A DNA stretch of 64,000 bases from Anaerolineales bacterium (GTDB lineage Bacteria > Chloroflexota > Anaerolineae > Anaerolineales > Villigracilaceae). Within the stretch, counting starts at the first letter, position 1; each line of letters begins with the position of its first letter. The notes beneath the pieces were generated by a model. It was not told the origin of the DNA and did not search any database. It saw only the letters and a program-made list of their open reading frames with translations. The position numbers and the translations under genes are program-made. The stretch lies in assembly GCA_034411715.1 (NCBI GenBank), contig DAOUMJ010000209.1:11604-75603 (forward strand), read 5' to 3'. Shown piece after piece: positions 2,503 to 58,438 of this stretch.

Positions 2503-2552
2503 GTAGACCCGTAGACAGGTACACAGGTAACATATTCGGCCTGTGTACCTGT
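2503..2552. repeat. GTACACAG-family hairpin element after acsB
   Basis: 8-nt units GTAGACCC/GTAGACAG/GTACACAG. Stem ACAGGTACACAGG (2515-2527) pairs with CCTGTGTACCTGT (2540-2552). Confidence 0.85.
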
Positions 2553-2576
2553 TTCGTATGCGCAAAACGATACACC

Positions 2577-3545
2577 ATGAACACCAAATTCCTTTTCGCA
2601 AGCGACCTGATAAGGAAATCCCTGCTGATAAAAATTCTGGCAGTTGCTCTGCTTGTTTTGTTGTTATGCAAACTGCCGGGGGAAATTCTTTTTTGGGTGT
2701 TATGCGCGGAACAGGATCGTGACATACCGCCCAATACCGAGGTAATCGTCTCCGCCTGTAAACGTCCAATTGCGATTGGAGTACCTGGCGGTGATGCATT
2801 GTTTGTACGTGAGGAAAGCAGTAGCAAGATATACCTTCTTGATTTGCGCACCAAGGAAAAAAGAAAAGTCCCTAATGATCCGCTATTGGAGAACAAAGGC
2901 ATATTTCTCAGTTCCGAACTAGTTTGGTTGGAAGGCAGCCTAGTGTCACCAGGCGAACCAGGATATAGGCCGCACTACATTCTAGATTTGACTAACGGTC
3001 AGCGATATGAATTGCTCGATTTGGATTTGCTTCCACGTCTCGAAGGCGGCAAGTTTGATTCCAAAAACTATGTCTACATCCAGTCTGCGGAGCGGGTTTT
3101 CCTTCATCACACGGAAAACACCTTAATCGCCTTATCATCGGATTTTCGCACCAACCAAAGTGAAAGACTTATATTTTCTGGCTATTCTATTGCTACTGAG
3201 AACGGCAAAGGGCTCGAGGAACTCCTGGAAGCCCTAGGAATTAATTACGAGATTGTAGATCTGTCCACAACACGCTACGCCGACATTCCTTCGCCAACCG
3301 GTAGATATGTCGTTCGAAATGATGGCATTTACCTTTCCAGCACCAATACCTCGGTTGTGACTCGTGAGTATACAGGTGGCGTTTTCATGGGCGGTTATTT
3401 TAAGGGTTGGTATTATGATGAAAGCGCTGTGGTTGTTCAGGAAAATCCAAACTATTTAATTGTCATCAGTTTCGGCTCTTCTTTCGTTCCTGTCCCACGT
3501 CCGATTCTCAAACTTCATCTGCCTATATCGCCCATTGCCGATTAG
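2577..3545 (+). CDS. Hypothetical membrane-anchored protein (322 aa) in an AT-richer island
   Basis: Long ORF with an N-terminal hydrophobic segment ('LLIKILAVALLVLLLC'). No recognisable catalytic motif. Composition is visibly AT-richer than the flanking acs genes. Confidence 0.6.
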   Translation: MNTKFLFASDLIRKSLLIKILAVALLVLLLCKLPGEILFWVLCAEQDRDIPPNTEVIVSACKRPIAIGVPGGDALFVREESSSKIYLLDLRTKEKRKVPNDPLLENKGIFLSSELVWLEGSLVSPGEPGYRPHYILDLTNGQRYELLDLDLLPRLEGGKFDSKNYVYIQSAERVFLHHTENTLIALSSDFRTNQSERLIFSGYSIATENGKGLEELLEALGINYEIVDLSTTRYADIPSPTGRYVVRNDGIYLSSTNTSVVTREYTGGVFMGGYFKGWYYDESAVVVQENPNYLIVISFGSSFVPVPRPILKLHLPISPIAD

Positions 3546-3640
3546 CAAGTAACCCTACAGACTCTTTGCGAATGGATGCGAGTATCACATGGGCCGCTTC
3601 GGCGCAGAAAAGCAACAAGCCAAACGACTTGGAGGATGAA

Positions 3641-6600
3641 ATGGAAACACGTCGCACTGGTTTCAAACGGACAGTTGTTATCTTTGTCTTTGCCGTGTTT
3701 ATTCTATTTTTATTCATGATTCCACCAGTGTTTGCCCAAGGAGAAAACCCATCAACACCCACTCCTTACGGTACTATGCCACCCTTCCCTGACACTACTC
3801 CGGAACCCTTCTTTATGCCAGAAATTCCACAAGAAAGCCCTATTCAATCACTAAACCAGATGGAATCTACTGCTCCATTAGGTGGAGATTGGGCCGCGCA
3901 AGTCAACATTTCAGACACAGCAGACGAATCCACCAATCCCAAAATAGCAACGGACAACAACGGAATTTTGCATTTTGTTTGGAGAGAAACTGTCGGCGGA
4001 AAGCAGGAAATCTTTTACAGCCGAATTACCGGTCTCGCCCAATCCATGCCAGTCAACGTTTCCAACAGCCCATCCTTCAACTCAGATTCTCCACAAATTG
4101 TGGCTGACAGCATTGGAACAGCACACATTGTCTGGCAGGAGGAGGATAACGACCACGCTGATGATTTCGAGACGCTCTATAGTCGATGCGATGAATCTGG
4201 TTGCACACCCCCAATGATATTGTCAGACGGTAATGTTTGTAGTTCGTACAGCGGTGATTGGAAGGCTGTTACTCCCACAATAGGGATTAACACAGATAAC
4301 AATTTAATAGTCGCATGGATATCATACGAACCAAACCCGAAGAATTACTTGATGTATAGCATCTGGCCAGCATCAAGTTCGCCTCCCACAAATCGAACGG
4401 GATGTCATCCTTATGCTGGATTAATTGGTTTGCCGTTGGTAGCAGGAGATTCGAACGGAAATTTCCATTTGGTTATGCTGGATTATAGTTTTAACGTGTA
4501 TTACAGTAGCAGTAGTAGCGGAAGTTGGACGTCTATTCAAAACATAGGAACGGGATATTACCCGGTAATCTTCATTGATGAAAATAACAAGATTCATACG
4601 GCTTGGTCAGACTACAACAGTATTACTCCACTCTATCGAAGCAGGGAGGGAGCGTCTTGGTCATCGCCAGAGACTGCAATCAGCAATGCACAATGCTATC
4701 AGACTAGCCTTGCAACTGACCAGGACAATCTGCCTCGACTGGTCTGTGCTGGATATGGAACTATCTATGAAACCTCCCGCCAGCCTACTGGATGGACAGA
4801 GGCGACGAACGTTATAGGTGACGAAGCAACACCGAGCCAGCCTAATCTTGCGAAGGATATTAACGGTAATTTACATTTAGTGTGGAGCGATGTTCGCACA
4901 GGAAACAGGGAGACATTTTATTCACCTACCTACAACTGCGAAGGCATTGAACCTGCGACAACAGCTGGGCAAGCGGTTTTGGATGTTTTGGAAAGTGATT
5001 TGAGAAACAGACCATTCCTAAACTACTGCAAAAACCTGGTTGAGGAAATAATCTTAGTCCCCGCTCCCGGTGGACAGGATGATCCTAAGGAGGCTTTTAA
5101 ACAGTGGGCAGACCTCGCTAGTTCCGCCGCCCACGAAGTTGCTTTTACAGTCATGTTTTGGGACAGGGGCAGCCCTGGAGAGATTGTACTTCAAGGAATA
5201 AGGAGCCTTTATGATAAGGTAATAAATCCATCGACTACCATTGGGTATCCACACGGCATGACAGTGCGCATCTTGTTGGGCGTGAAAGTAAATGCAATTG
5301 CTCCCCCTTGGCCGGACCAAAGGGATTCTGTTTTACGCGAATTGCAAAACCAAGATATTCCAATTTATAAGACCTTACCTGATGGGCGTGTTTGGAAAAT
5401 CCAAGTGGGTGTATACCGAGAAGGCCTTCAATGGAGTAAATCGCCGGGAGCCTATAGTCACGTCAAATTAATGGTCGTAGACAGTAATAAAATGATTGTT
5501 TCTGGCTATCATCCTCAATATGCATTTCAGACCGCTGAAAATGGAGAGGCCGATTACCATGATTTGGGAATAAAAGTCGCCGGCCCTATTGCTGCAAACG
5601 GGATGGCAGTTTTCGACTCTTTATGGGCTGATAGCGAGATTAAATGTACCGAAGAAGGTGCTTGGATAATTGACAATGATCTCTCTTTAGATCTATGCGG
5701 CGAACCTGGGCTTGGGGAGAATCCAACACATTGGTTCTTTGTTCCAACTGGAGATGACATTGCCCTACCGCTATATCGCGACCTTACTCAAAAAGTAGCG
5801 GACATGGCTGTGGAGCAAGCGATTAAGTCTGCAAATACTCAAGTCTATGTTATCCAGAACCGCGTTGGGGTATCTGGAAATTTTCCTGTTTTATCTTACG
5901 GAGAAGATGGGTGGCTGAATTATGCGAACGCACTTCTTAAAGAAGCATTGGAGAATACGGAAGTTCGCATCCTCTTTTCCAGAGACACAGCCAATTTTTA
6001 CTATAACCTTCCTTCCATGTTAAATTTCATGGATAAATATTATCAAGAGGGAGGACAGGAAGAGGAATGGAATATCTTTAGATTTTATCACCCGGAGGGA
6101 TATAACCTCTTTACCCAGATTGGACTACACGCCAAAACTTTCATGATCGACGGAGAATTTCTTGTCATTGGGAGCCAGAATTTCGATCACTCTGCATTTG
6201 GTAGTTCTCGCGATGATTTAGATTTGGTAGAGTATAGCCTGGGAATAGAAGACAGTACTACTATCATAAATATAAAGCAAGATTATTATTCAGATGCCCT
6301 GTGGAATTCATCTATTGGTCCGGAGGTAATCAGCCCGGAAGATTCTTTCAAAGCAAGCGTTGAACAGGCCAGCCCCGGGGCAATTATTTTTATGAAGCCG
6401 GGATACTATGAGATTTCCAGTCCAGTAACGATTCCCGAAGGAGTTACAGTCGTTGGCTTGGATGCGGTCATCAGGCCATCAGTTTATTTCGTTGGACAAA
6501 CAGAGACGTTCAAGCTGGCTGCGCCCAATTTTGCTTCCACTCCTGCTCCACTATTGCACATTACTGGCAGTAACGTGACATTGATTGGGTTGACTCTTCA

Positions 6601-7783
6601 GAACAGTTCTGGTTATGCTATTGAAATTGGAGATGGAAGTACAGCAATTGAGAACGTTTATTTGTCTCGATTGGTTTTTGAAAACAACGCATTGGGCGGC
6701 GTTCATGTTCAAGGCCCCGCCGATGGCGGCCTTGCCGACTACACAATTGAAAATAACACCTTTGTGGGCGGCGGTTCCGGGGTGACAATCACAGCCAGTG
6801 CAACTGCAACTGGGATCATCCGTAATAACATCTTTGCCGGGCAAAGCCTCGCGCCAGTACAGATAACCTCTGAGAATGATGGAAATGTCGAGTATAATTA
6901 TAACCTGTTTTACGCTTGCGCGAGCGGCGGTTGCGCGGACAATTGGCACATTGGAAACCTGGGAGTTGGTTCGAACGCACATGACAACCTCTTTGACCTA
7001 AATCCGCTGTTCGCCAATCCCGCATTTGGAGATTACCATCTCTCTTCTGCCTCGCCCGCGATAGATATTGGCGATCCGGACATTTTGAACGATCTGGTCT
7101 ACGATGGGAATGGCGACGGTTTGCCGCGCATTGACATGGGAGCATTCGAATACTTGGGAGAATCTGGCGGGCCTACGCCAACTGTGGCTCCTTCGCCTAC
7201 ACTAACGGCAACTCCGACGCTTACATGGACACCCATATTTACCTTCACACCAACATTGACCCGGACGCCTACCTCTACTTTCACACCGACGCCAAGCCCA
7301 ACACCGACCTTGACTCGAACATCTACAGCAACTTTCACGCCAACAGTGAGCCTAACACCGACTTTCACACTGACATCGAGCCCAACACCGACCAAAACCT
7401 CGCCCCCTACAAGTTCGCCGACACAAACTGGCCTATATCAATTCACTGGGTTTTTCCCGCCGGTTGATAACCAGCCGATTCTAAATGAATTGAAAGCCGG
7501 AAGCGCCGTACCGATCAAGTTCAGTTTGGGCGGCTATCAGGGCATGAATATCTTGGCCGAGGGTTATCCAGTCTCTGGCATAGTAACTTGCGGTTTCTCC
7601 ATCGTGGACGCCATTGAGCAGACGGTCACTGCGGAATCAAGTAGTCTCTCTTACGATGCCTCGTACAACCAATATATCTACGTCTGGAAAACCAATAGCG
7701 CTTGGTCTGGCGCCTGCCGAACGTTCGTAATGAAACTGCTTGACGGCTCCTACCATCGAGCAGACTTCAAATTCAGAAAGTAG
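3641..7783 (+). CDS. Giant secreted multidomain protein: signal peptide, degenerate propeller repeats, PLD-like domain (2x HKD), right-handed beta-helix, Thr/Pro linker, C-terminal ~115-aa domain
   Basis: Start chosen at ATG 3641 ('[10 protein letters not shown]' plus the hydrophobic '[23 protein letters not shown]'), preceded by GGAGGA at 3631-3636. The ORF track start is 3566. Six to seven ~50-aa repeats ('[21 protein letters not shown]', '[15 protein letters not shown]', '[18 protein letters not shown]'). HKD motifs '[16 protein letters not shown]' (from 5459) and '[20 protein letters not shown]' (from 6128). Beta-helix repeats ('[13 protein letters not shown]', 'IRNNIFAG'). TP-rich linker ~7165-7420. 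The C-terminal domain carries 'PIKF'. Confidence 0.8.
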
Positions 7784-7788
7784 CTCGG

Positions 7789-8307
7789 ATGCGAGAGATG
7801 ATTCTAGTGGATGCGCCAGTCCTTATTCGCGACCTCATGACTATCGGTGTACCAACTTGCAAGACCACTACTCCGGTTGTTGACATCGCGCGTTTTCTGA
7901 TAGACAATAACGTGGAAGAAATGGTCGTTCTGGGAAGCGAGGGCGAAGGCGTGGGAGTGGTCGGCTACGAGGAATTGGTCACGGCCTATCATCGTGAGAA
8001 CGCCCGCGAGTTGACCGCCGAGGACGTGATGCGCGAAGGCGTGACCGAGTTACCCTCCGACATCCCGCTCACCGTCGCCGCGCAGATGATGAAAGACAAA
8101 GGCGTCCGCGTCGCGTACATGAACCATAATTCGGCAGGCATCATCTATCCCGCCGCGATGATCTCGTACCGCCACATTGTCCGTCATTTGGCCGCGAAAG
8201 ACGAGAGCGAACTGAAAGACTTGGGTCTCGCGGCGGAACGCAAATCACCTGTCGAAGTGTTTGTCGCGCGAAGAGACCAAGCGCGCAAAGAAGCGAAGAT
8301 TACATAG
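7789..8307 (+). CDS. CBS-domain pair protein
   Basis: 172-aa ORF with two CBS-like halves ('IRDLMTIGVPTC...VVDIARFLIDNNVEEMVVL', 'AEDVMREGVTELPSD..PLTVAAQMMKDKGVRVAYM'). Confidence 0.75.
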   Translation: MREMILVDAPVLIRDLMTIGVPTCKTTTPVVDIARFLIDNNVEEMVVLGSEGEGVGVVGYEELVTAYHRENARELTAEDVMREGVTELPSDIPLTVAAQMMKDKGVRVAYMNHNSAGIIYPAAMISYRHIVRHLAAKDESELKDLGLAAERKSPVEVFVARRDQARKEAKIT

Positions 8308-8308
8308 C

Positions 8309-8362
8309 AGTACCGCAAGATTTATCTTGCCTGCTGGTGGGCAACATGAATGTTGCGGTACT
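8309..8362. repeat. ~54-nt double-hairpin element, copy A
   Basis: AGTACCG-CAAGATTTATCTTG-(spacer)-CAACATGAATGTTG-CGGTACT: a 7-bp outer stem enclosing two small hairpins. Confidence 0.8.
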
Positions 8363-8375
8363 ACAAACTGCACAA

Positions 8376-8416
8376 CCTGAAACCTGACACCTGAAACCTG
8401 ACACCGAAACACCACA
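8376..8416. repeat. CCTGAAA/CCTGACA heptamer array upstream of acsD
   Basis: CCTGAAA CCTGACA CCTGAAA CCTGACA CCGAAAC ACCACAC. Confidence 0.8.
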
Positions 8417-8431
8417 CTCACTGGAGGAACA

Positions 8432-9376
8432 ATGCCAATCGAAATCCCAAAGGATAAGTGGCCTGGAAGCGTCCGCACCGTGACCATCGGCGCGACAGCC
8501 GCGGAGGGCGGGACGCGCGCCAAGTCCGTCACTGTCGGCGGCGAGACCACCCTGCCATACATGCACTTCGAAGCGCCCATGCCGAACAAACCCGTGATCG
8601 CCATCGAGATCAAGTCGCGCAAACCCGATGATTGGTCGCCGTTGTTGGCCGAGGCCTGGGGCGAGGCGATGTCCGACCCCGCTCAATGGGCGAAAAAAGC
8701 CGAAGAAGCAGGCGCCGACCTCCTCGTCCTGGCGTTGACGCTGGCCGATTCGCCCGACGACGCGGTGAAGGCCGTCAAGTCGGTCCTCGCCGCGACGGGA
8801 CACCCGCTCGTCGTCTGGGGACCCGGTCAGGCCGAGAAAGACAACGAACTGCTCGTTCCTGTGTCCGAAGCGACGAAGGGCGAGCGGATCGTCCTCGGCA
8901 TTTGCGAAGACAAAAACTACCGCACCATCGTTGCGACCGCCATGGCGAACGGACATCTCGTGCAGGCGCGCACGCCGATGGACGTGAACCTGTCGAAGCA
9001 GTTGAACATCCTCATCAGCGACATGGGCATGCCGAAGGATCGCATCATCATGGACCCGACGACGGGAGCATTGGGTTACGGGATTGAGTACGGCTACTCG
9101 GTGATGGAACGCCTGCGCCTCGCCGCGTTGCAAGGCGACGCGATGACGCAATCGCCGATGCTGGTCACGCCTGGATTCGAAGCGTGGAAAACAAAAGAGG
9201 CGAAAGTCGGCGAGGGCGTCCCCGAAACCTGGGGCGATTGGAAGGGGCGCTCGATCAATTGGGAAACCCTCACCGCCCTCGCGCTGGTCGAATCGGGCGC
9301 GGATATTCTCGTGTTGCGGTATCCCGAGTCGGTCGCGCGAGTGAAGAACGCGATTGAAGAGTTGGTGGTGGCGTGA
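8432..9376 (+). CDS. acsD: Corrinoid iron-sulfur protein small subunit (CFeSP delta, AcsD/CdhD)
   Basis: 'MPIEIPKDKWPGSVRTVTIGAT...TVGGETTLPYMHFE' is a typical AcsD N-terminus. GGAGGA lies upstream. Sits in acs operon context next to acsC. Confidence 0.9.
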   Translation: MPIEIPKDKWPGSVRTVTIGATAAEGGTRAKSVTVGGETTLPYMHFEAPMPNKPVIAIEIKSRKPDDWSPLLAEAWGEAMSDPAQWAKKAEEAGADLLVLALTLADSPDDAVKAVKSVLAATGHPLVVWGPGQAEKDNELLVPVSEATKGERIVLGICEDKNYRTIVATAMANGHLVQARTPMDVNLSKQLNILISDMGMPKDRIIMDPTTGALGYGIEYGYSVMERLRLAALQGDAMTQSPMLVTPGFEAWKTKEAKVGEGVPETWGDWKGRSINWETLTALALVESGADILVLRYPESVARVKNAIEELVVA

Positions 9377-9378
9377 AC

Positions 9379-9468
9379 GTACACAGGTAGACACGTACAC
9401 ACGTAAACATGCGGAACGGAACACGAAACACGCAACACGCACCACATAACTATGTAACCACGTAACTA
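9379..9468. repeat. Direct 8-mer (GTACACAG-type) then 7-mer (GAACACG-type) tandem array, acsD-acsC spacer
   Basis: GTACACAG GTAGACAC GTACACAC GTAAACAT, then GAACACG AAACACG CAACACG CACCACA TAACTAT GTAACCA CGTAACT. Confidence 0.8.
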
Positions 9469-9478
9469 AGGAGTCCCC

Positions 9479-10783
9479 ATGGCGCTCTCTGGAATTCAAA
9501 TCTACAAACTCTTGCCTCAGACGAACTGTAAAGAGTGTGGTTTCCCAACTTGTTTGGCCTTCGCGATGAAACTCGCCGCCAAGCAGGTCGAACTCGGCGC
9601 GTGTCCCTACGTCACCGATGAATCGAAAAAGCAACTGGCTGAATCGTCCGCGCCGCCCATCCGCCTCGTGGCGCTCAAGGCTGGCACGGAAGTCAAAGCG
9701 GGCAACGAGGTCTGCCTCTTCCGCCACGAAAAAACTTTTTACAACAAGCCTGGCCTGTTCATCCGCGTCAACGCCAGCGACCCCGACCTCGCGAAAAAAG
9801 TCGCGCAGGCCGACGCGTACAAGGTCAACTACGTGGGCATGGACTTCACGATTGACGGCTTCGCGGTCGGTGGGGATTCGGACCTGGGCGCGGCGGTCAA
9901 GACGATTCGCGGCGTGACGAAGCGACCGCTCATCCTCATCGGCGACGCGGCCTCGCTTCAATCTGGACTTTCGGCCTGCGGAGGCGAGACCCCATTGCTC
10001 TACGCGGCTGACGCGTCCAACGCCGACGCGCTCGCGGACCTCGCCAAGGGCAAAGCCGCCCTCGTCGTCAAAGCCGATTCGCTCGACGCGCTTGCCGACT
10101 TGACTCAGAAAGTCCAGGCGAAGGGCGTGGAAGATATCGTTCTCGATCCGTCCGCCTCCACGCTTGGCGCGTCCTTGGCTGTCAACACGCAACTGCGCCG
10201 ACTCGCCCTGAAAAATTTCCGTCCATTGGGCTATCCCATCATCGCCTTCCCCTGCGACGCGAAAGACGAGGGCATCGCGGCCGCGCAAGCCATCGCCAAG
10301 TATGCGGGCTTCATCGTGTTGAGCGAGTTCAAACCCGAACTGCTCTACCCGCTGCTCGTCCTGCGCGAGAACATCTACACCGACCCGCAGAAACCGATTC
10401 AAGTCCAACCTGGCATCTACGAGATCAACCAGCCCAAACCCGAAAGCCCCGTGCTGGTCACCACGAACTTCAGCATCACCTACTTCTCGGTTGCCAACGA
10501 GGTCGAAGGCTCAGGCCTTCCCGCCTGGCTGGTCGTGACCGACGCGGAAGGTATGTCCGTGCTGACCGCGTGGGCGGCGGGAAAATTCGACGCGGAGAGA
10601 ATCGCCAAGGCCATCAAAGGCTTCGACGTGGCGAGCAAAGTCAGCAAGAAGCGCGTCGTCCTGCCTGGACACGTCGCCGTGCTTTCGGGCGAACTCGAAG
10701 CGGAACTGCCCGACTGGGAGATTCGCGTCGGCCCGCGCGAGGCGGTGGATTTGCCCGCGTTTATGAAGCAGGCGCTGAATTAG
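9479..10783 (+). CDS. acsC: Corrinoid iron-sulfur protein large subunit (CFeSP gamma, AcsC/CdhE)
   Basis: N-terminal 4Fe-4S motif 'LPQTNCKECGFPTCLAFAMKLAAKQVELGACPYV'. 434 aa. AAGGAG lies upstream. Confidence 0.92.
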   Translation: MALSGIQIYKLLPQTNCKECGFPTCLAFAMKLAAKQVELGACPYVTDESKKQLAESSAPPIRLVALKAGTEVKAGNEVCLFRHEKTFYNKPGLFIRVNASDPDLAKKVAQADAYKVNYVGMDFTIDGFAVGGDSDLGAAVKTIRGVTKRPLILIGDAASLQSGLSACGGETPLLYAADASNADALADLAKGKAALVVKADSLDALADLTQKVQAKGVEDIVLDPSASTLGASLAVNTQLRRLALKNFRPLGYPIIAFPCDAKDEGIAAAQAIAKYAGFIVLSEFKPELLYPLLVLRENIYTDPQKPIQVQPGIYEINQPKPESPVLVTTNFSITYFSVANEVEGSGLPAWLVVTDAEGMSVLTAWAAGKFDAERIAKAIKGFDVASKVSKKRVVLPGHVAVLSGELEAELPDWEIRVGPREAVDLPAFMKQALN

Positions 10784-10845
10784 GTAGACAGGTAAACAGG
10801 TCGCGCGCTCCACGTGTGTACTTGTGTACGTGTTTACCTGTGTAC
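10784..10845. repeat. GTACACAG-family imperfect palindrome, acsC-acsV spacer
   Basis: Left arm GTAGACAGGTAAACAGGT. Right arm ACGTGTGTACTTGTGTACGTGTTTACCTGTGTAC. Confidence 0.85.
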
Positions 10846-10851
10846 CCCCCC

Positions 10852-12801
10852 ATGAACCACACCCTCACCTTCACTCACGAAGACAAGCAAGCCAGCGTCA
10901 CCGTTCCCACCAACACGCTGCTGGCTGACGCGGCGCGTCTCGCGGGGATTGATATCGGCCAGCCATGCGGCGGGCAGGGACGCTGCGGCCGCTGCGCGGT
11001 GCAGGTGACGGAGGGCGAAGTTCGACGCAGAAGCACACTCCGCCTCTCCGTGTCGGACGTGAATGAGGGTTACGCGTTGGCTTGTCAAACCGTTGCTGAA
11101 GGCAACGCCGCGATCTTCGTCCCGCCGCAGGAAAAGATCGAACGGCGACTCACGACCGATCGCGTCGTCGCGGAAGTCACCGTCCCTGCGGATTACGATT
11201 ACGACGCGTTCCAGACCGTCCGCCGTGTGCATCTGCAACTCAGCCCTCCCAGCATGGATGACCAGACCGACGACTGGGCGAGATTGCAAATCGCGTTTCG
11301 ATTGCAGCATGGGATGGAGAGTGTTGCGTGTTCCGTTGGCTTGCTGCGAAAGATCGGCGCCGTCCTCCGCGAAGGCGATTGGAACGTCACCGCCGTCATC
11401 GAAACTCCGCGACTAGCCGACCACGCGACTATTCGACTATTAGACTTACAACCGGGCCGCGTGGACGAATACTCCCCCCTCTGGGGCGCGGCGATTGACA
11501 TCGGCACAACGACGGTCACGCTCTGGCTGGTGGATCTGGTGACGGGACAAGTCCGCGCGCAGGCCGCCGAATACAACGGCCAGATCGCGCGCGGCGAGGA
11601 CGTGATCTCGCGCATCATCTACGCCAGCAAGGACGGCGGCGGGGACGAGATGCGCCAGCGCGTGCTGGATACGATCAACGGCCTGCTCGAAGCCGCCTGC
11701 AAGCGCGTGAAGTCCCCCGAGGGAAAAGTGACGCCCGACCAGGTTGTGAAAGCGACCATCTCTGGCAATAGCACGATGATGCACCTTCTGCTTGGAATCC
11801 CCGCCGCGCCGATTCGACTCTCGCCGTTTATCACGACGGTCAATCATCCGCCCGCGATGACCGCGCGCGAAGTGGGCTTGCACGCGCACCCCGAAGCGGC
11901 GGTGGATTGCCTGCCCGGCGTCGCGAGTTACGTCGGCGCGGATATTACGGCGGGCGCGCTGTCGTCCGGACTCGACGACGCGGAAAACGTGACGCTGTTC
12001 CTCGATGTCGGCACGAACGGCGAAACGGTGCTGGGCAACCGCGATTGGCTGGTGACGTGCGCGTGTTCGGCGGGTCCTGCCTTCGAGGGCGCGGGGGTGG
12101 TGGACGGGATGCGCGCAACGCAAGGCGCCATCGAAGAGGTGTGGATCAACAGCGAAACGCTCGAGCCGACGTACCGCGTCATCGGCGGAGGCAAGCCGAA
12201 GGGAATTTGCGGAAGCGGGCTGATCTCCCTCTTGTCGGAGGCGTTCATCACGGGAGTCCTCGACAAGGGAGGCAACGTCAATTTGGCCGCGCCCAGCCCG
12301 AGGGTCCGGGAAGGAGCGCACGGCGGGGAGTACGTCGTCGCCTGGGGAGCGGAGACCGAGTCGGGCGAGGATATTGTCCTGACGCGCGTCGACATTGACA
12401 ATCTCCTGCGCGCCAAGGCCGCGATCTACGCGGGCTTTACCGTCCTTGCCGAGAATGTCGGCATCCCGCTCGAAAGCGTGGAGCGCGTGCTGGTGGGCGG
12501 GTCGTTCGGAAAATACATCAACGTCGAGAAGGCCGTGCAGATCGGGCTTTTACCAGATCTCGAATGGAAGCGCTTCGAGTTTCTCGGCAATACGTCGGTG
12601 AAGGGCGCGTATCTCGCGCTGCTCGATTGGAGGAAGCGCGAGCGCATCACTGAGATCGCGAAGCGAATGACTTATATCGAACTTTCCGCGGACAACACAT
12701 TCTACGAGGCGTTCACGTCCGCGTTGTTTTTGCCGCACACGGATTTGAGCAAGTTTCCGAGTGTGGCGGAGGCTCTTGAACGTAAACAGGTAGACACGTA
12801 A
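10852..12801 (+). CDS. acsV: Reductive activator of CFeSP (RACo/AcsV type: 2Fe-2S ferredoxin domain plus ASKHA ATPase)
   Basis: Start moved to ATG 10852 ('MNHTLTF...'), because the track ORF from 10570 overlaps acsC. Plant-type ferredoxin motif 'CGGQGRCGRCAV..ACQ', then an ASKHA-like 'AAIDIGTTTVTLWLVD' and 'LFLDVGTNGE'. The stop lies inside a repeat element. Confidence 0.85.
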   Translation: MNHTLTFTHEDKQASVTVPTNTLLADAARLAGIDIGQPCGGQGRCGRCAVQVTEGEVRRRSTLRLSVSDVNEGYALACQTVAEGNAAIFVPPQEKIERRLTTDRVVAEVTVPADYDYDAFQTVRRVHLQLSPPSMDDQTDDWARLQIAFRLQHGMESVACSVGLLRKIGAVLREGDWNVTAVIETPRLADHATIRLLDLQPGRVDEYSPLWGAAIDIGTTTVTLWLVDLVTGQVRAQAAEYNGQIARGEDVISRIIYASKDGGGDEMRQRVLDTINGLLEAACKRVKSPEGKVTPDQVVKATISGNSTMMHLLLGIPAAPIRLSPFITTVNHPPAMTAREVGLHAHPEAAVDCLPGVASYVGADITAGALSSGLDDAENVTLFLDVGTNGETVLGNRDWLVTCACSAGPAFEGAGVVDGMRATQGAIEEVWINSETLEPTYRVIGGGKPKGICGSGLISLLSEAFITGVLDKGGNVNLAAPSPRVREGAHGGEYVVAWGAETESGEDIVLTRVDIDNLLRAKAAIYAGFTVLAENVGIPLESVERVLVGGSFGKYINVEKAVQIGLLPDLEWKRFEFLGNTSVKGAYLALLDWRKRERITEIAKRMTYIELSADNTFYEAFTSALFLPHTDLSKFPSVAEALERKQVDT

Positions 12802-12850
12802 ACAGGTACACAGGTGACGTGTGTACGTGTGTACCTGTGTACTTGTGTAC
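12782..12850. repeat. GTACACAG-family palindrome spanning the acsV stop codon
   Basis: GTAAACAGGTAGACACGTAAACAGGTACACAGGTGAC / GTGTGTACGTGTGTACCTGTGTACTTGTGTAC. The TAA at 12799-12801 lies inside the left arm. Confidence 0.85.
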
Positions 12851-12865
12851 TCGAAAGGAGAGACC

Positions 12866-13432
12866 ATGCTGCCAGACCAAATCAAAACATTCCGCGAAAT
12901 GGTCACGTTGAAAGACGGCGTTCACGTCCTGTTGAGACCGATGGTAAAAGAGGATCGCCCGCACCTGGATGAACTCTACCTGTCCGCGGCGGATGAGGAT
13001 GCGCGTTACCTGCGCGATAACGTCAAAGACCCGTCAGTTCTGCAGAAGTGGTGCGACACGCTGAATTACGACAACATCCTCCCCATGCTGGCGATGGTCA
13101 AGGATCGCGCCGTCGGAAGCGGCACGCTTCACTTTCTCAAAGGACCGAAACGCCATATCGGCGAGATTCGAATTTTCCTGACGCGCGAGTTTCGCAAGCG
13201 CGGGCTTGGCACGAAGATCATCCGCATGCTGGTGGATTTCGCGCGCCGGCAGGGACTCTCGCTCCTGCTGGCGGAGGTCACAGCCGACCAGCCGAAAGTG
13301 ATCCACGCCTTCGAGCAAATTGGTTTCAAAGCCCGCTGCACGCTCGAAGATTACTTCATGTTCCCCGACGGCGATTGCTCGGATGTGGTTGTGATGACCA
13401 TGGAGCTGAAGCCGCGCGGGGAGGAGTTCTGA
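12866..13432 (+). CDS. GNAT-family N-acetyltransferase
   Basis: Start at ATG 12866 after AGGAG. Acetyl-CoA-binding-like 'REFRKRGLGTKIIRMLVDFARRQG'. Embedded between acsV and acsE. Confidence 0.75.
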   Translation: MLPDQIKTFREMVTLKDGVHVLLRPMVKEDRPHLDELYLSAADEDARYLRDNVKDPSVLQKWCDTLNYDNILPMLAMVKDRAVGSGTLHFLKGPKRHIGEIRIFLTREFRKRGLGTKIIRMLVDFARRQGLSLLLAEVTADQPKVIHAFEQIGFKARCTLEDYFMFPDGDCSDVVVMTMELKPRGEEF

Positions 13433-13436
13433 GGAG

Positions 13437-13513
13437 GTAAACACGTAGACAGGTACACAGGTAAACACGTATACACGTGACCTGTCTACCTGTGTACTTG
13501 TGTACTTGTATAC
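13437..13513. repeat. GTACACAG-family palindrome, GNAT-acsE spacer
   Basis: GTAAACACGTAGACAGGTACACAGGTAAACACGTATACACGTGAC / CTGTCTACCTGTGTACTTGTGTACTTGTATAC. Confidence 0.85.
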
Positions 13514-13532
13514 CAACCAACTGGAGGCACAA

Positions 13533-14456
13533 ATGCTGATCATAGGCGAAAACATTCATATCATCTCCGAGAAAGTCAAGGAGGCGTTGGCTAATCGCGA
13601 CCGCGAGTTCTTCATGGATTTGGCCGTCAAGCAGGTGGAGGCGGGGGCGAAGGCGATTGACATCAACCTCGGGCCGCGCAAGAAGGATTGGGCGGAGGTC
13701 TTCCCGTGGATCGTCGAGACGATCGAGACCGTGGTGGATGTGCCGCTCTCGATTGACACGACCAACGTGGACGGGATGGAAGCCGCGCTCAAAACCATCA
13801 AGAAGGCGCAGCCGATCCTGAATTCGACATCGGCGGAACCCGAACGATTGGAAAAAGTCCCGCTGCTGGCAAAGAAATACAACGCCAAGATCATCGCGCT
13901 GACGATGGGGACGAGCGGCATCCCCGTCGAGGCCGACGCGCGCGTCAATATCGCGGTCGAGACGTTGATTCCGCGACTCATGGAGATCGGCTTCAACATG
14001 GACGATCTCATCATTGACCCGCTGGTGCTGACCGTTTCAGGCTGCCAGCAATACTGCCCGCACTTGATCGAAACCGTGCGGATGTTGCAATACGCCTGGG
14101 ATCCGGCGCCGAAGATCTCGGTCGGGTTGAGCAACGTGTCGAACGCCGTCCCGAACGAGAACCGTCCGCTCATCAACCGCGTCTACCTCGCCATGCTGAT
14201 GGGCGTCGGCCTGCAGACGATGATCGCCAATCCGTTCGACGAAAAGCAGAACGACGTCATCCGCTGGATCGAAACGAAGGACGCCTCGTCCCCGCTGGCG
14301 CGGCTGTATAACAAGATCGCCGAACGCACCGCCAACAGCGAAGAACCGCAGATGGAAGACTTCGATTTGTCCGATCCCGAACAGTCCGCCATCTGGAAGA
14401 CGACGCAGATTCTGTTGAACAAAGTCATTTATGCGGATGCGTATCTGGCGAACTGA
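13533..14456 (+). CDS. acsE: Methyltetrahydrofolate:CFeSP methyltransferase (pterin-binding domain)
   Basis: Start at ATG 13533 after GGAGG. 'MLIIGENIHIISEKV...AGAKAIDINLGP' is a typical AcsE/MeTr N-terminus. Confidence 0.9.
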   Translation: MLIIGENIHIISEKVKEALANRDREFFMDLAVKQVEAGAKAIDINLGPRKKDWAEVFPWIVETIETVVDVPLSIDTTNVDGMEAALKTIKKAQPILNSTSAEPERLEKVPLLAKKYNAKIIALTMGTSGIPVEADARVNIAVETLIPRLMEIGFNMDDLIIDPLVLTVSGCQQYCPHLIETVRMLQYAWDPAPKISVGLSNVSNAVPNENRPLINRVYLAMLMGVGLQTMIANPFDEKQNDVIRWIETKDASSPLARLYNKIAERTANSEEPQMEDFDLSDPEQSAIWKTTQILLNKVIYADAYLAN

Positions 14457-18523: not shown

Positions 18524-21500
18524 GCCTGTCGGCGCGGTGATGGTTGTCGGCGGAGGCATCGCGGGCATGCAGGCCTCGCTCGACCTGGCCGAGCAGGGAT
18601 TCAAAGTCTATTTGGTGGAGAAAAATTCCGCCATCGGCGGACACATGGCGCAATTGGATAAGACCTTCCCGACCAACGACTGCGCCATGTGCACCATCTC
18701 GCCTCGCCTGGTAGAAACGGGCCGACATCCGAACATCGAAATCCTCACGAACTCCGAAGTTCTCGACATGACCGGCCAGGCGGGCAATTTCACTGCGACC
18801 ATCGAGCGGCGGCCGCGCTACATTGATACGACCAAATGTATTGCCTGCGGCGATTGCGTCAAGGTCTGCCCGGTGCTTGTGCCGGACACTTTCAACGAAG
18901 GGCTTGCCTCCCGCCGCGCGGCCTACAAACTTTATCCGCAAGCCGTTCCCAATGCCTTCGCAATCGAGAAGAACGGCATCGCCCCATGCCGGGACGCCTG
19001 TCCTGCCCATCAGCGCGCACAGGGATACATCGCGCTGATCCGCGAGGGCCGTTGGGCGGACGCGCTGCGCGTCATCAAAATGGACAATCCCTTCCCCGGC
19101 ATCTGCGGGCGCATCTGCAACCACCGCTGCGAAACGGCCTGCAATCGCGGCGAAGTGGACGAACCGATCAATATCCGCGCCCTCAAACGATTCGTGACCG
19201 ACAAGGTGTATTCCGAGCCGCGCCAACCCGTCGGGCCGGTCGAGATCAAATATCCGGATCAACGCGTCGCCATCATCGGCGCGGGACCGTGCGGATTGAC
19301 CGCCGCGCAAGACATTATCCGACAGGGTTATCCGGTCACGATTTTCGAAGCCATGCCGGTCGCGGGCGGGATGTTACGCCTGGGCGTGCCGGAGTTCCGC
19401 CTGCCGGCCGAGATCATCGAGCGCGAGGTGGCGGACATTGTTGACCTGGGCATCGAGTTGAGACTCAATACGCCCGTGACCAATCTCGACGATATTTTCA
19501 ACGAGGGATTTACTTCGGTGTTGATTTCCGTCGGCGCGCACGAGGGCGTGCGCCTGCCGATCCCCGGCGCGAATTTGGACGGCGTCATAATCAATACTCA
19601 GTTCTTGAAGGATGTGCGTTTGGGAAAATATGAAACAAAAGATGAAAGCGGAAAGCCTGCCCTGAGCGAAGTCGAAGGGATGAAAGAGGAAAGAGGCGAC
19701 GGTTCCGATAATTCATCTTTCATCTCTCATCTTTCATCTTTGGGTAAGAACGTTCTCGTCCTCGGCGGCGGAAACGTGGCGATTGACGTGGCGCGGACAG
19801 CCGTGCGTTTGGGTTGCAAGGTCTCGATGGCTTGCCTGGAAAGCCGCGAACAAATGCCCGCGCACGAATGGGAGATTCAAGCCGCGCTCGACGAAGGCAT
19901 CGCAATTTACAACGACCGTTCTTTCGAGCAAATCTTCAGCGACGAAAACGGGCGCGCTCGCGGCGTGGAATGTATGCAGGTCAGTTCGTTCAGTTTCGAC
20001 GAGATGGGACGGTTGAGCGTCGAGAAAATCCCTGAGTCGAATCACGTCCTCCCGTGCGACACGGTCATTTTCTCGGTCGGGCAGCGCGCAGGTCTGGCGT
20101 TCATCCCCGCCGACGCGGGCGTCGGTCTCACCGAACGCAAGACCATCGCCATCAATCCCAACACCTTTGCCGCCACACGTCCCGGCGTCTTCGCGGCGGG
20201 CGATAGCGTCAGCGGGACGGCCTTTGTCATCGAGGCGGTTGCCAGCGGACACAAAGCGGCGGAATCCATTCTTCGTTATTTGCAAGGCGAGGCGCTGGAA
20301 CGTCCGCCCAAGCCTGAACTGCCGGTGGTCAAACTCACGCGGCAGGAGATTGACGACCGCATCGCGCGCGGCGAGATCAAAAAACAACCGCGCGTCCCAC
20401 TCCCCGAACTGCCCGTTGAACAACGCATCAACAACTTCATCGAAGTCGAAGGCGGCTATGACGACGAATCGGCGCAGCGTGAGGCGGCGCGCTGCCTGGC
20501 CTGCGGCATCTGCTCGGAATGTATGTCCTGCACCTTCGCGTGCGGTGTCAACGCGATTGACCACGATATGGTGGCGCGGCAGGAAGCGCTCAACATCGGC
20601 GCGGTGATCCTCGCGCCGGGCTATCAGGCGTATCACGCGGAACTGTCGGAGGAATTCGGCTACGGACGCTACCCGAACGTGGTCACGTCCCTGCAATTCG
20701 AACGCCTCCTCTCCGCCTCCGGCCCGACGATGGGACACGTCCACCGGCCCTCGGATCATCGCCCGCCGAAGCGGATCGCCTTCCTCCAGTGCATCGGCTC
20801 GCGCGACCAGACTCACGATTACTGCTCGGCGGTGTGCTGTATGTATGCGACGAAGGAAGCGGTCATCGCGAAAGAGCACCAGCCTGGGCTGGACGTTCAC
20901 GTTTTTATGATGGACATGCGCGCCTTCTCGAAAGGCTATTGGGGATATTTCGAGCGCGCCCGCGAGAGATATGGAATCCAATACCATCGTTCGCGCGTCA
21001 GCATGATCCGCGAAGACCCGAATACGCATGATTTGATTCTCAGTTACATGAGTGATCAGTTATCAGTAATCAGTGATCAGTTTGATATGGTCGTACTTTC
21101 CGTCGGGATGGAAATCTCCGAGTCGGTCAGAAATCTTGGGCGGCGATTGGGCGTCGAACTGGACGATTACGGATTCTGCCAGACGGTCCAGTTCAACCCG
21201 CTCGAAACTTCGCGGCCGGGAATCTACGCCGTCGGGCCGTTCCGCGAGCCGAAAGACATTCCCGAATCGGTCGTCGAGGGGAGCGGAGCGGCCGGGGCGG
21301 CCGCGGCCCGCCTCAGTCACGCGCGATTCGCCCTGACCGTCAGCCGCGAATATCCCGAGGAGCGGGACGTCAGCCAGGAGTCGCCGCGCGTCGGCGTCTT
21401 CGTCTGCTCGTGCGGCACGAACATCGGCGGCTTTGTGGACGTGCCAACGGTCTCAGAGTACGCGTCGAAGTTGCCAAACGTGGTTCACGCCGAGTCGAAT

Positions 21501-23162: not shown

Positions 23163-23187
23163 AGGATGAAAGATGAAGGATGAAATT
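23157..23187. repeat. GATGAAG heptamer array containing the hdrL stop codon
   Basis: GGATGAAGGATGAAAGATGAAGGATGAAATT. The TGA at 23160-23162 is part of the first unit. Confidence 0.85.
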
Positions 23188-23232
23188 GCGTGGAACGTGT
23201 TGCGTCCCTTCGACTTCACTCAGGACAAGATT

Positions 23233-23274
23233 GTGTGTTCCGTGTTTACCTGTGCACTTGTGTACCTGTCTACC
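23233..23274. repeat. GTACACAG-family half element (reverse-orientation arm only), upstream of the Sec-mvhD
   Basis: GTGTGTTCCGTGTTTACCTGTGCACTTGTGTACCTGTCTACC. Confidence 0.75.
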
Positions 23275-23285
23275 TGACGCGACCA

Positions 23286-23711
23286 ATGAATGAACCGTTG
23301 AACATCATCGCTTATTGCTGTGAGCATTGCGCCTACGCCGCGGCCGATCTCGCGGGCGGACTGCGGATGCAGTATCCGCCTTCGGTGAAGGTGGTGCTGT
23401 TGCCCTGCACCGGTAAGCTGGATGTGCTGCTGGCGCTGAAAGCCTTCGAGGACGGCGCGGACGGCGTGATGACGGCTGGCTGACTGCCGGGCGACTGCCA
23501 TTACCTGGAAGGTAATGCTAATGCAAAGCGCAGAGTGGAATACCTGCAATCATTATTGAAAGAAATCGGCCTGGAGCCGGAGCGGGCGCGCATGTTCAAT
23601 CTCTCGGCGGCCATGGCTGGAAAATTTGTGGAAGCGACGAAAGAAATGACGGAGAAGATTGAAAAGTTGGGTCCGAATCCGTTGAAAACAAGGATGAATG
23701 ATGAAGGATGA
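23286..23711 (+). CDS. mvhD: MvhD-type protein with in-frame UGA (23481-23483) read as selenocysteine. The ORF track truncates it at 23483.
   Basis: Collinear with the paralogue at 17880: 'GADGVYVVAC-PIGNCHH' versus 'GADGVMTAG[UGA]LPGDCHY'. The frame stays open after the UGA for 75 codons with homology to the end ('KLGPNPLK'). A hairpin lies 16 nt downstream. Confidence 0.8.
23499..23517 (+). promoter_or_regulatory. Candidate bacterial SECIS hairpin for mvhD UGA
   Basis: Perfect 7-bp stem CATTACC / GGTAATG with loop TGGAA, starting 16 nt after the UGA. Confidence 0.5.
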
Positions 23712-23720
23712 AGGATGAAA
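23691..23720. repeat. GATGAAG heptamer array (left flank of the four-helix-bundle gene) containing the Sec-mvhD stop
   Basis: AGGATGAATGATGAAGGATGAAGGATGAAA. Confidence 0.85.
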
Positions 23721-23760
23721 AACGTAATACGGAAATCGCGCAAAGATATGGAGACGATCA

Positions 23761-24132
23761 ATGAACAATGAACAGCCACAAGACTTGCGGACAAGGACGA
23801 GCGATTTTGCATTGAGAATCATTCGGCTGTATGTAAGCCTGCCAAAGGCAACCGAAGCCCAGGTCATCGGAAAGCAGGTTCTACGTTCAGGCACATCGGT
23901 TGGCGCGCATTATCGCGAGGGTCATCGAGCGAAGTCCGACGCCGATATCATCAATAAATTCGAGACCGCGTTGCAGGAATTGGACGAGACCGATTACTGG
24001 TTGGAATTGCTCGTGAAAGCCGATATTGTCCCTGCCCAAAAACTGGAATCGCTTCGCAAAGAAACGAGCGAACTTCTCGCAATATTCACAACCATCGTAA
24101 CCAAAATCAAGAAGAGAACTGGAAAGAAGTGA
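23761..24132 (+). CDS. Four-helix-bundle protein (23S rRNA intervening-sequence protein family)
   Basis: 'FALRIIRLYVSLPKATEAQVIGKQVLRSGTSVGAHYREGHRAKSDADIINKF..ALQELDETDYWLELL' matches the family signature. AT-richer than its neighbours and flanked by inverted GATGAAG arrays. Confidence 0.8.
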   Translation: MNNEQPQDLRTRTSDFALRIIRLYVSLPKATEAQVIGKQVLRSGTSVGAHYREGHRAKSDADIINKFETALQELDETDYWLELLVKADIVPAQKLESLRKETSELLAIFTTIVTKIKKRTGKK

Positions 24133-24139
24133 TGAAACC

Positions 24140-24173
24140 CATTCATCCTTCATCCTTTATCCTTCATCCTTTC
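24140..24173. repeat. Inverted GATGAAG array (right flank of the four-helix-bundle gene)
   Basis: CATTCATCCTTCATCCTTTATCCTTCATCCTTTC, the reverse complement of the units at 23691-23720. Confidence 0.85.
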
Positions 24174-58354: not shown

Positions 58355-58382
58355 ACAGGTACACAAGTACACAGGTACACAC
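58351..58382. repeat. GTACACAG-family half element overlapping the nuoEF-like stop codon
   Basis: GTAGACAGGTACACAAGTACACAGGTACACAC. Confidence 0.75.
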
Positions 58383-58386
58383 GGCC

Positions 58387-58438
58387 AGTACCGCAACATT
58401 CATGTTGCTTCTCGTGGCAAGATAAATCTTGCGGTACT
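58387..58438. repeat. ~52-nt double-hairpin element, copy B (reverse complement of copy A with a different central spacer)
   Basis: AGTACCG-CAACATTCATGTTG-CTTCTCGTGG-CAAGATAAATCTTG-CGGTACT. Confidence 0.8.

Follow-up and report, generated by a model that had tools for sequence, protein, structure and literature searches.

Short-tandem-repeat hairpins in the acs operon spacers of an Anaerolineales genome, and a slot behind acsC that keeps a hairpin while its sequence is replaced

We find that five spacers of the acs operon in a 64,000-nucleotide stretch of DNA (the window; C209:11604-75603 of assembly G000, 3.95 Mb in 306 contigs, 58.7% GC) are occupied by arrays of GTA[ACG]AC.. octamers, here called GTACACAG units. 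The host of the window, like the named relatives compared with it, is represented by a metagenome-assembled genome (MAG) of the Chloroflexota, order Anaerolineales. The reading that we favor, with a probability of roughly 0.6, is that the arrays are filler at four of these spacers, and that the fifth, between acsC and RACo, is a structurally conserved slot with a function at the RNA level. The elements themselves are best explained as clade-specific short-tandem-repeat palindromes, the Chloroflexota counterpart of the short tandemly repeated repetitive (STRR) sequences of cyanobacteria, with a distribution like that of repetitive extragenic palindromic (REP) sequences.

The octamer arrays and the acsC-RACo slot

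A first-pass annotation of this DNA had placed octamer arrays behind acsB, acsD, acsC, RACo and the GNAT gene, with more copies farther downstream; all are present, at 2503-2552 and at the other positions listed below. The motif GTAVACVS matches 54 times in the window as compared to 14.9 ± 3.9 times in dinucleotide-preserving shuffles (n = 100), none of which reaches 54, and Tandem Repeats Finder returns period-8 arrays at every reported site. RNA folding yields -29, -32.6, -34.3 and -42.1 kcal/mol for four of the acs spacers (z-scores between -3.9 and -4.9; stems some 16-31 pairs long), while the acsD-acsC spacer is unfolded (z +1.1, below the structure of its own shuffles), just as the annotation had it in assigning stems to all but the acsD spacer. 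The individual features are as follows (MFE, minimum free energy in kcal/mol; SD, Shine-Dalgarno motif; ORF, open reading frame).

2503-2556, + strand: GTACACAG hairpin after acsB; 5' arm 2503-2529, 3' arm about 2541-2556, perfect 16-bp stem; MFE -29, z -3.87; next ATG at 2577.
9379-9409, + strand: sense GTACACAG arm of 4 units, 2 nt past the acsD TGA; complementary arm absent.
9410-9467, + strand: AACACGC-type heptamers (9416-9445), then AACTATGT/AACCACGT units (9441-9466); acsC SD AAGGAG at 9468-9473, acsC ATG at 9479.
10784-10845, + strand: GTACACAG hairpin between acsC and RACo; 5' arm 10784-10801 (2 units), 3' arm 10814-10845 (4 units); MFE -32.6, z -4.89; followed by CCCCCC and the RACo ATG at 10852, without an SD.
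12782-12850, + strand: GTACACAG hairpin between RACo and GNAT; 5' arm 12782-12813, loop GTGAC, 3' arm 12819-12850; MFE -34.3, z -3.92; RACo stop TAA (12799-12801) within the third unit; SD GGAG at 12857, GNAT ATG at 12866.
13437-13513, + strand: GTACACAG hairpin between GNAT and acsE; 5 units, loop GTGAC, 4 units; MFE -42.1, z -4.0; SD GGAGG at 13523-13527, acsE ATG at 13533.
22246-22325, + strand: GTACACAG hairpin within a 1583-aa HdrA/GltD-like ORF (hdrL), in frame, about 27 residues (AGKQVNMYTGTQGGSSLSACLPVYVST); MFE -45.5, z -6.0.
23234-23276, + strand: lone CTGTGTAC (antisense-type) arm, 10 nt 5' of the Sec-mvhD ATG at 23286; shares its spacer with a non-complementary (AAGGATG)4 array at 23155-23184; MFE -10.7, z -0.25.
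58349-58381, + strand: sense arm of 4 units, the first GTAGACAG unit of which gives the TAG stop (58352-58354) of ORF 56642-58354.

Some details of the annotation need amendment. The acsD spacer had been described as octamers throughout, and they make up only its first part (9379-9409), the two listed segments together forming an ordered composite A->B->C; the arrays had been said to end a few nucleotides before the next SD or ATG, and the acsB hairpin stops 25 nt before its ATG; the extra copies are real, but the one at 22246 lies in frame within an ORF and the one at 23234 is a lone arm. The acs spacers leave no room for promoters, with downstream genes beginning 6-25 nt past the stems.

To place these spacers in a wider context, we surveyed 79 Anaerolineales acs operons (loci L018-L097) at the four slots acsC-RACo, CBS-acsD, acsD-acsC and RACo-next gene. 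We count a hairpin as strong if its MFE/length falls below -0.40 and its spacer measures 40 nt or more; an empty slot measures 30 nt or less.

acsC-RACo: strong hairpin in 46/79 (58%), empty in 3/79.
CBS-acsD: strong hairpin in 7/62, empty in 2/62.
acsD-acsC: strong hairpin in 8/79, empty in 30/79.
RACo-next gene: strong hairpin in 7/73, empty in 21/73.

The acsC-RACo slot thus stands apart from each neighboring slot (about 10%; Fisher p ~1e-8 to 1e-10) and from the baseline of 21% strong hairpins in co-directional gaps of 40-200 nt in G000. Two of its three "empty" spacers retain a small GC hairpin, and its occupants are self-folding in 83% of cases as compared to 32-47% at the neighboring slots. 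Median distances are 1.5 nt from the acsC stop to the stem and 8.5 nt from the stem to the RACo start. By sequence, the hairpins form at least 19 clusters, which include repeat hairpins of many unit families, GTCATTGCGAG-type palindromes and plain GC stems. At this slot a hairpin persists although the sequence that forms it has changed time and again, and in G000 that sequence is currently the GTACACAG element; conservation of structure but not of sequence at one operon position, as expected of an intercistronic stabilizer, is found at acsC-RACo only.

RACo is without an SD motif in 74/79 genomes (present in 5/79), and the motif precedes acsD in 60/61, acsC in 78/79 and the gene after RACo in 73/73. 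Taken together, the 58% hairpin occupancy and the SD-less RACo speak for a function in RNA at this one slot, through stability or through translational coupling. The slot is in effect a natural experiment: it retains a hairpin through at least 19 non-homologous replacements in front of an SD-less gene and its neighbors do not, and the proposition that structure matters and sequence does not becomes directly testable.

A palindrome resembling a miniature inverted-repeat transposable element (MITE), GTCATTGCGAG...CTCGCAATGAC, of 90-190 nt, is widespread in Anaerolineales (e.g., L020, L025, L028, L036, L037, L039, L045 and L047; G000 copy at C188:~13930-14040), and often replaces the tandem-repeat hairpin at acsD-acsC and acsC-RACo.

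Placement, turnover and surroundings of the repeat families

A genome-wide census, in which an arm is defined by at least three in-phase GTA.AC.. units, returns 143 arms in 104 elements and none in a reversed-genome control; the elements are spread over more than 60 contigs, in arrays of 3-12 units. Genes were called with a home-made codon-usage caller, checked against the Pfam-annotated window. We find 78/104 elements in non-coding DNA or at gene edges of a genome that is 84% coding (16% expected; p ~4e-41), and 57/65 classifiable elements between co-directional genes (baseline 68% of gap length, p = 1.8e-4). This bears out the REP-like distribution that had been proposed from the window, with intercistronic enrichment in place of a random spread.

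Placement is tight. Relative to the upstream stop, the GTACACAG arm has its median start at +2 nt (35/57 within ±8 nt), that stop being the TAG or TAA of the first GTAGAC/GTAAAC unit in about 15 cases, and the CTGTGTAC arm adjoins the next SD or ATG; element-bearing spacers consist almost wholly of repeat units from stop to SD. In the hairpin design, about 4+4 units (some 30 nt per arm) flank a loop of some 5 nt that varies; of the lone arms, 27 are sense and 8 antisense, and some elements are inserted in frame within ORFs. Stop-codon supply was considered as a universal trait of 5' arms and rejected: it holds for GTA(G/A)AC units and fails for GTGTCAG and GTCGAAA in relatives. Arrays that give stop codons, false GTG starts and in-frame inserts can mislead gene callers on Anaerolineales MAGs. 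Adjacent pairs of elements are not significantly clustered (4 versus 2.5 expected, p = 0.23), and the four consecutive same-family acs spacers make up the only run longer than two spacers found genome-wide (permutation p = 0.002-0.005).

Comparison with relatives reveals rapid change. The three-unit pattern occurs in 10/13 congeners, at 0 to ~590 matches per genome, and is nearly absent from other genera in the genome panel; in the wider set of named Anaerolineales MAGs, the GTACACAG family is found in other acs slots. Operon order is conserved among the relatives compared, and its slots are not. At acsD-acsC, G012 and G013 have only TAAAGGAGnnnnnATG, while G002, G010 and G008 carry a hairpin of AATTACC units, G005 one of GTGTCAG and G011 one of GTACACAG, such that the tight clade (G012,(G002,G011)) of the acs-protein tree has three states at one slot; across the survey, the 30 empty spacers at this slot measure 10-13 nt. 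The closest relative, L018 (95% AcsC identity), shares the 5' 33 nt of the acsD-acsC array with G000, but the 3' half is entirely different. RACo-GNAT is empty in G005 (15 nt) and lacks the GTACACAG hairpin in L018 (32-nt spacer), and the GNAT-acsE element is common only to G005 among nine relatives. Where filled by other families, orthologous slots carry AATTACC, GTGTCAG, GTCGAAA, GGAGATT, GCGTATT or GTTGAAG hairpins.

The annotation had suggested looking for presence/absence polymorphism, and it is seen: in close relatives these slots are vacant or carry repeats of unrelated families, which indicates fast turnover. Insertions land repeatedly in the narrow slot from stop to SD, the only place that spares both genes, and, given their non-conserved occupants, four of the five acs spacers look like lineage-specific filler. 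A concatenated AcsD/AcsC/RACo/AcsE tree nests G022 and G016, labeled as other genera, among the same-genus genomes, a placement that may reflect either transfer of the acs operon or a mismatch between taxonomy and gene tree.

The GTACACAG family belongs to a larger repertoire. Periods 7 (567 arrays) and 8 (234) dominate the tandem repeats of at least three copies in this genome; they cover 3.4% of non-coding as compared to 0.44% of coding DNA and occur in 446/2265 gaps of at least 20 nt. Unit families include AATTACC, ACACCTG, AACACGC, AATACGC, ACTGATC, AAGGATG and AAATCCGTG, and this diversity makes GTACACAG one of more than 20 families of 7-9-nt repeats. Unit sequences are strongly conserved within a family, arms measure about 26-34 nt in all families, whatever the unit period, and the purine-richer arm comes first in 41 hairpins versus 10, a property that is identical on either strand. 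A second design is an A/C-rich, non-folding composite in the fixed order GTACACAG -> AACACGC -> AACTACG, of which the acsD-acsC spacer is an example; genome-wide, A->B occurs 18 times and B->A once, and A->B->C four times versus 0. The composite units look related by stepwise change, with the period shifting from 8 to 7. At 23155-23285, (AAGGATG)4 after the hdrL stop is joined to the CTGTGTAC arm before Sec-mvhD, the two being of different families, and similar two-family hybrids lie at C204:4271 and C230:34379; such spacers suggest mixable "post-stop" and "pre-start" modules.

The gene order around the arrays, confirmed with Pfam, is as follows.

37-2502, + strand: acsB, intein-bearing, stop TAG at 2500-2502.
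2577-3545, + strand: 322-aa ORF, 3' of acsB.
3566-7783: PLD/beta-helix protein, 1405 aa.
Between the 3566-7783 gene and acsD: CBS protein.
8432-9376, + strand: acsD, stop TGA at 9374-9376.
9479-10783, + strand: acsC, stop TAG at 10781-10783.
10852-12801, + strand: RACo/AcsV, stop TAA at 12799-12801.
12866-13432, + strand: GNAT, stop TGA at 13430-13432.
13533-14456, + strand: acsE; then hdr/mvhD/metF genes.

Three non-acs genes stand between acsB and acsD. Two of these (2577-7783) are compositionally atypical, are rated non-native by the codon-usage caller, and break the operon between acsB and CBS/acsD; relatives differ in content there. The AcsB intein contains a LAGLIDADG domain (PF14528, PF14890).

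Several neighboring features carry repeats of other families. Within the 1583-aa HdrA/GltD-like ORF, an AAGATGA/TCATCTT hairpin and AGTGATC and CAATTAC arrays (19625-19741, 21051-21081 and 22570-22598) lie in frame and read as short peptide inserts. At 23690-24171, a 123-aa ORF (23761-24132) is enclosed between (AAGGATG)4 and the inverse array (CATCCTT)4; its predicted product looks like a four-helix-bundle protein of the type encoded by 23S rRNA intervening sequences. A separate palindrome of about 55 nt, CAGTACCGCAAGATTTATCTTGCC...GGCAACATGAATGTTGCGGTACT, is present in several spacers, often adjoins tandem-repeat arrays and occurs at 8308-8362, at 58386-58438 (about -30 kcal/mol) and on contigs C238, C154 and C169, with its inner part in both orientations. 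The second MvhD/FlpD gene, ended at 65 aa in the ORF list, has an in-frame TGA (23481-23483) at the position of G-x-LPGDCHY where Cys is expected, which probably encodes selenocysteine.

A proposed RNA-level role at acsC-RACo and its alternatives

We propose that the elements arise, swap arms and vanish quickly, surviving mainly where insertion harms neither neighbor, between the stop codon and the ribosome-binding site. The occupants of acsB-ORF, acsD-acsC, RACo-GNAT and GNAT-acsE are best regarded as lineage-specific; they are presumably carried on the operon transcript and may have side effects on mRNA decay. The acsC-RACo hairpin most likely acts in the polycistronic mRNA, in one or both of two ways. 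It could be a barrier to 3' exonucleases or a site for RNase III, which is encoded in the genome, such that the acsB-acsD-acsC segment would outlive the RACo segment; or it could hold the acsC stop near the RACo AUG, allowing terminating ribosomes to restart on the SD-less cistron.

A number of observations weigh against this combination of filler and function. In repeat-bearing spacers, sense RNA is less stable than antisense (35 versus 15, GTACACAG spacers, p = 0.012), which argues against general selection for mRNA structure, and at acsC-RACo the two are equal (36 versus 35), so there is no G·U signature of RNA-level selection at the slot itself. SD-less downstream genes in G000 are not enriched for strong hairpins (20% versus 22%), and coupling is therefore not a general rule. 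The slot could also be a mutational hot spot, with an ancestral hairpin attracting palindromic insertions. On the side of the filler, the run of four same-family spacers is unexplained by a pure tolerated-filler model and hints at local copying, and the count of 26 intragenic elements is approximate, as the codon-usage caller misses a few compositionally atypical genes, the one at 3566-7783 among them.

Were the elements neutral or selfish everywhere, acsC-RACo included, occupancy of that slot would reflect insertion bias at a hot spot or tolerant site. We regard this as possible but unlikely. The lack of relationship among the at least 19 occupant clusters, MITE-like GTCATTGCGAG palindromes included, is consistent with it, as are the sense/antisense equality at the slot, the lack of a genome-wide link between SD-less genes and hairpins, and the in-frame insertions into ORFs. 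The slot is, however, empty in only 3/79 operons as compared to 30/79 and 21/73 next door, with GC hairpins persisting in two of those three; its occupants are self-folding far more often than those of its neighbors; and plain, non-repeat GC hairpins fill it in many genomes, which a bias in repeat insertion cannot explain.

A tentative proposal, about as doubtful, is that a so far undescribed, directional DNA-level process, neither transposition by a REP-associated tyrosine transposase (RAYT) nor plain slippage, builds and exchanges the elements, its product at acsC-RACo being kept by selection as a bridge from stop to SD-less start for termination-reinitiation. Arms of ~30 nt at any period, the purine arm first in 41:10 and the composite order of 18:1 hint at templated, ruler-limited synthesis or conversion instead of random slippage, as do the different 3' half of the acsD-acsC array in a 95%-identical relative and the spread of one family over four consecutive spacers.

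The first-pass annotation had suggested that the elements set the stoichiometry of the subunits of acetyl-CoA synthase (ACS) and the corrinoid iron-sulfur protein (CFeSP). In its strongest form, the five hairpins would be a selected, operon-specific set of stabilizers, processing sites or protein-binding sites tuning the ratios of ACS, CFeSP, RACo and AcsE, which we find improbable. Four very stable stems, an encoded RNase III, the genome-unique run of four spacers and the lack of promoter room all speak for such a set. Against it, in relatives whose acs proteins are 85-95% identical these slots are vacant or contain unrelated or non-folding repeats, the acsD-acsC array is unfolded, and sense RNA is less stable than antisense. 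Since the other slots are not conserved and those surveyed show hairpins at the background rate (7/62, 8/79 and 7/73), the stoichiometry claim fails for the whole set. What survives of it fits acsC-RACo only, where differential expression of CFeSP/ACS and RACo finds support in a hairpin conserved after acsC in position and not in sequence.

That the hairpins are U-less terminators or attenuators grading transcription along the operon is very improbable: strong GC-containing stems do lie immediately past stop codons, but U-rich tails follow 0/46 of the acsC-RACo hairpins, no U-tract follows any G000 acs hairpin, no terminator-like site is found on the + strand of the acs spacers, downstream genes start 6-25 nt away without promoter room, and the genome uses canonical hairpin-plus-U terminators elsewhere (33% of convergent 3' ends versus 4.5% of intragenic controls), which makes a terminator function unlikely. 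We give equally little credence to a DNA-level role as binding arrays for nucleoid, gyrase or IHF-like (integration host factor) proteins, a role proposed for bacterial interspersed mosaic elements (BIMEs), or as cruciforms affecting supercoiling or replication; the purine-first chirality on either strand, the constant arm length and the conserved units within families would suit it, but more than 20 unrelated families would need many binding proteins, copy number ranges from 0 to ~590 among congeners, and placement follows stop and start codons and the direction of transcription.

Comparison with known systems

Searching window positions 1-26000 against Rfam 15 returns only two chance-level matches to miRNA models (27 and 25 bits; gathering threshold 100), and our literature searches returned no description of STRR-type or heptamer-repeat hairpins in Anaerolineae. 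Among mobile palindromes, mobilization by RAYT/IS200 was rejected, as the genes for Y1 transposases (PF01797) are flanked by other palindromes and not by GTACACAG arrays. The PF01797 matches on C118, C230, C117 and C207 have no GTACACAG arm to a distance of 3 kb, the single arm near the C215 gene (5294-5325, ~2.5 kb off) is non-flanking, and across the congeners GTACACAG copy number and Y1 gene content do not go together. The Y1 genes at C118:19737-20081 and C215:7884-8228 (~145-150 aa) are bracketed by their own GC-rich palindromes (e.g., GCACGGGGATGAAATCCGCCGTGCT) and constitute a genuine REP/RAYT-like system, unrelated to the tandem-repeat hairpins. A terminal GTAG tag was likewise rejected, with GTAG-type units terminal in 30/143 arms and second in 38/143, and so was a MITE, as unit number, variants and loops differ between copies and filled-versus-empty sites show no target-site duplication. 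With no RAYT link, no GTAG tag, no target-site duplication and variable copies, the elements are not classical REPs or MITEs.

In placement they nonetheless resemble the GTAG-REPs described by Di Nocera et al. (2013, PMC3733652), which sit close to where the upstream ORF ends, can provide its TAG stop and in some cases fall within genes. Like GTAG-REPs and BIMEs, the GTACACAG elements lie between unidirectional ORFs (57/65), close to the upstream 3' end (median +2 nt) at a variable distance from the downstream gene, can supply the stop, and include in-frame copies and mosaics. Unlike GTAG-REPs, their stems are built of about 4+4 octamers in place of a single 20-40-bp palindrome, and loops and unit numbers vary freely. 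The in-frame copy at 22246-22325 recalls the Rickettsia palindromic elements (RPE), palindromic repeats that also occur in frame within protein-coding genes; RPE differ in being longer, of fixed sequence, and not arrays of tandem units.

For the acsC-RACo hairpin, the closest functional analogs are intercistronic hairpins that stabilize mRNA, the malE-malF REP of E. coli and the puf operon hairpins of Rhodobacter. The likeness, one of functional analogy only, is a stable, U-less stem after the gene of an abundant subunit and before a gene of lower need. The differences are that the occupant is swapped for unrelated sequences between species, that the downstream RACo lacks an SD, and that the role here is a predicted one.

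The arrays are tandem repeats, with a head-to-tail unit in the 5-11-nt range and lengths beyond chance. Among long simple-sequence repeats, those with heptamer units are the commonest, and slippage is given as their cause (PMC4679880, PMC4692102), known examples being GGGAATC of Xanthomonas and Nostoc (PMC4692102) and TAACTGA of Beggiatoaceae (PMC4679880); long simple-sequence repeats were surveyed by Mrazek (2007), as cited in those two papers. Shared features are an intergenic position between same-direction ORFs, nearer the upstream ORF, variation of length and sequence among close relatives and the invocation of slippage. In the known cases a single unit is repeated in one direction; here, arrays form hairpins with a reverse-complement partner or link up into ordered composites, and more than 20 families co-exist.

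The closest relatives in kind are the STRR sequences, whose heptamer hairpins lie between hupS and hupL in filamentous cyanobacteria, where roles in stability or coupling have been proposed (PMC2670836); the first-pass annotation thus overstated matters in calling arms of short tandem units unusual. Both systems consist of ~7-nt tandem units in many dispersed copies, enriched between genes, with hairpins in the spacers of a metalloenzyme operon (4/5 acs spacers here). The host, of the Chloroflexota/Anaerolineales, lies outside the cyanobacterial host range. The GTACACAG unit is not one of the named STRR units; it is an octamer, presumably unrelated to the cyanobacterial heptamers, in a genome where many families co-exist. 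These elements add a second phylum to the STRR-like hairpins, with strict stop-to-SD placement, the purine-arm-first rule and a size of about four units per arm quantified here, and with non-homologous replacement at orthologous slots documented.

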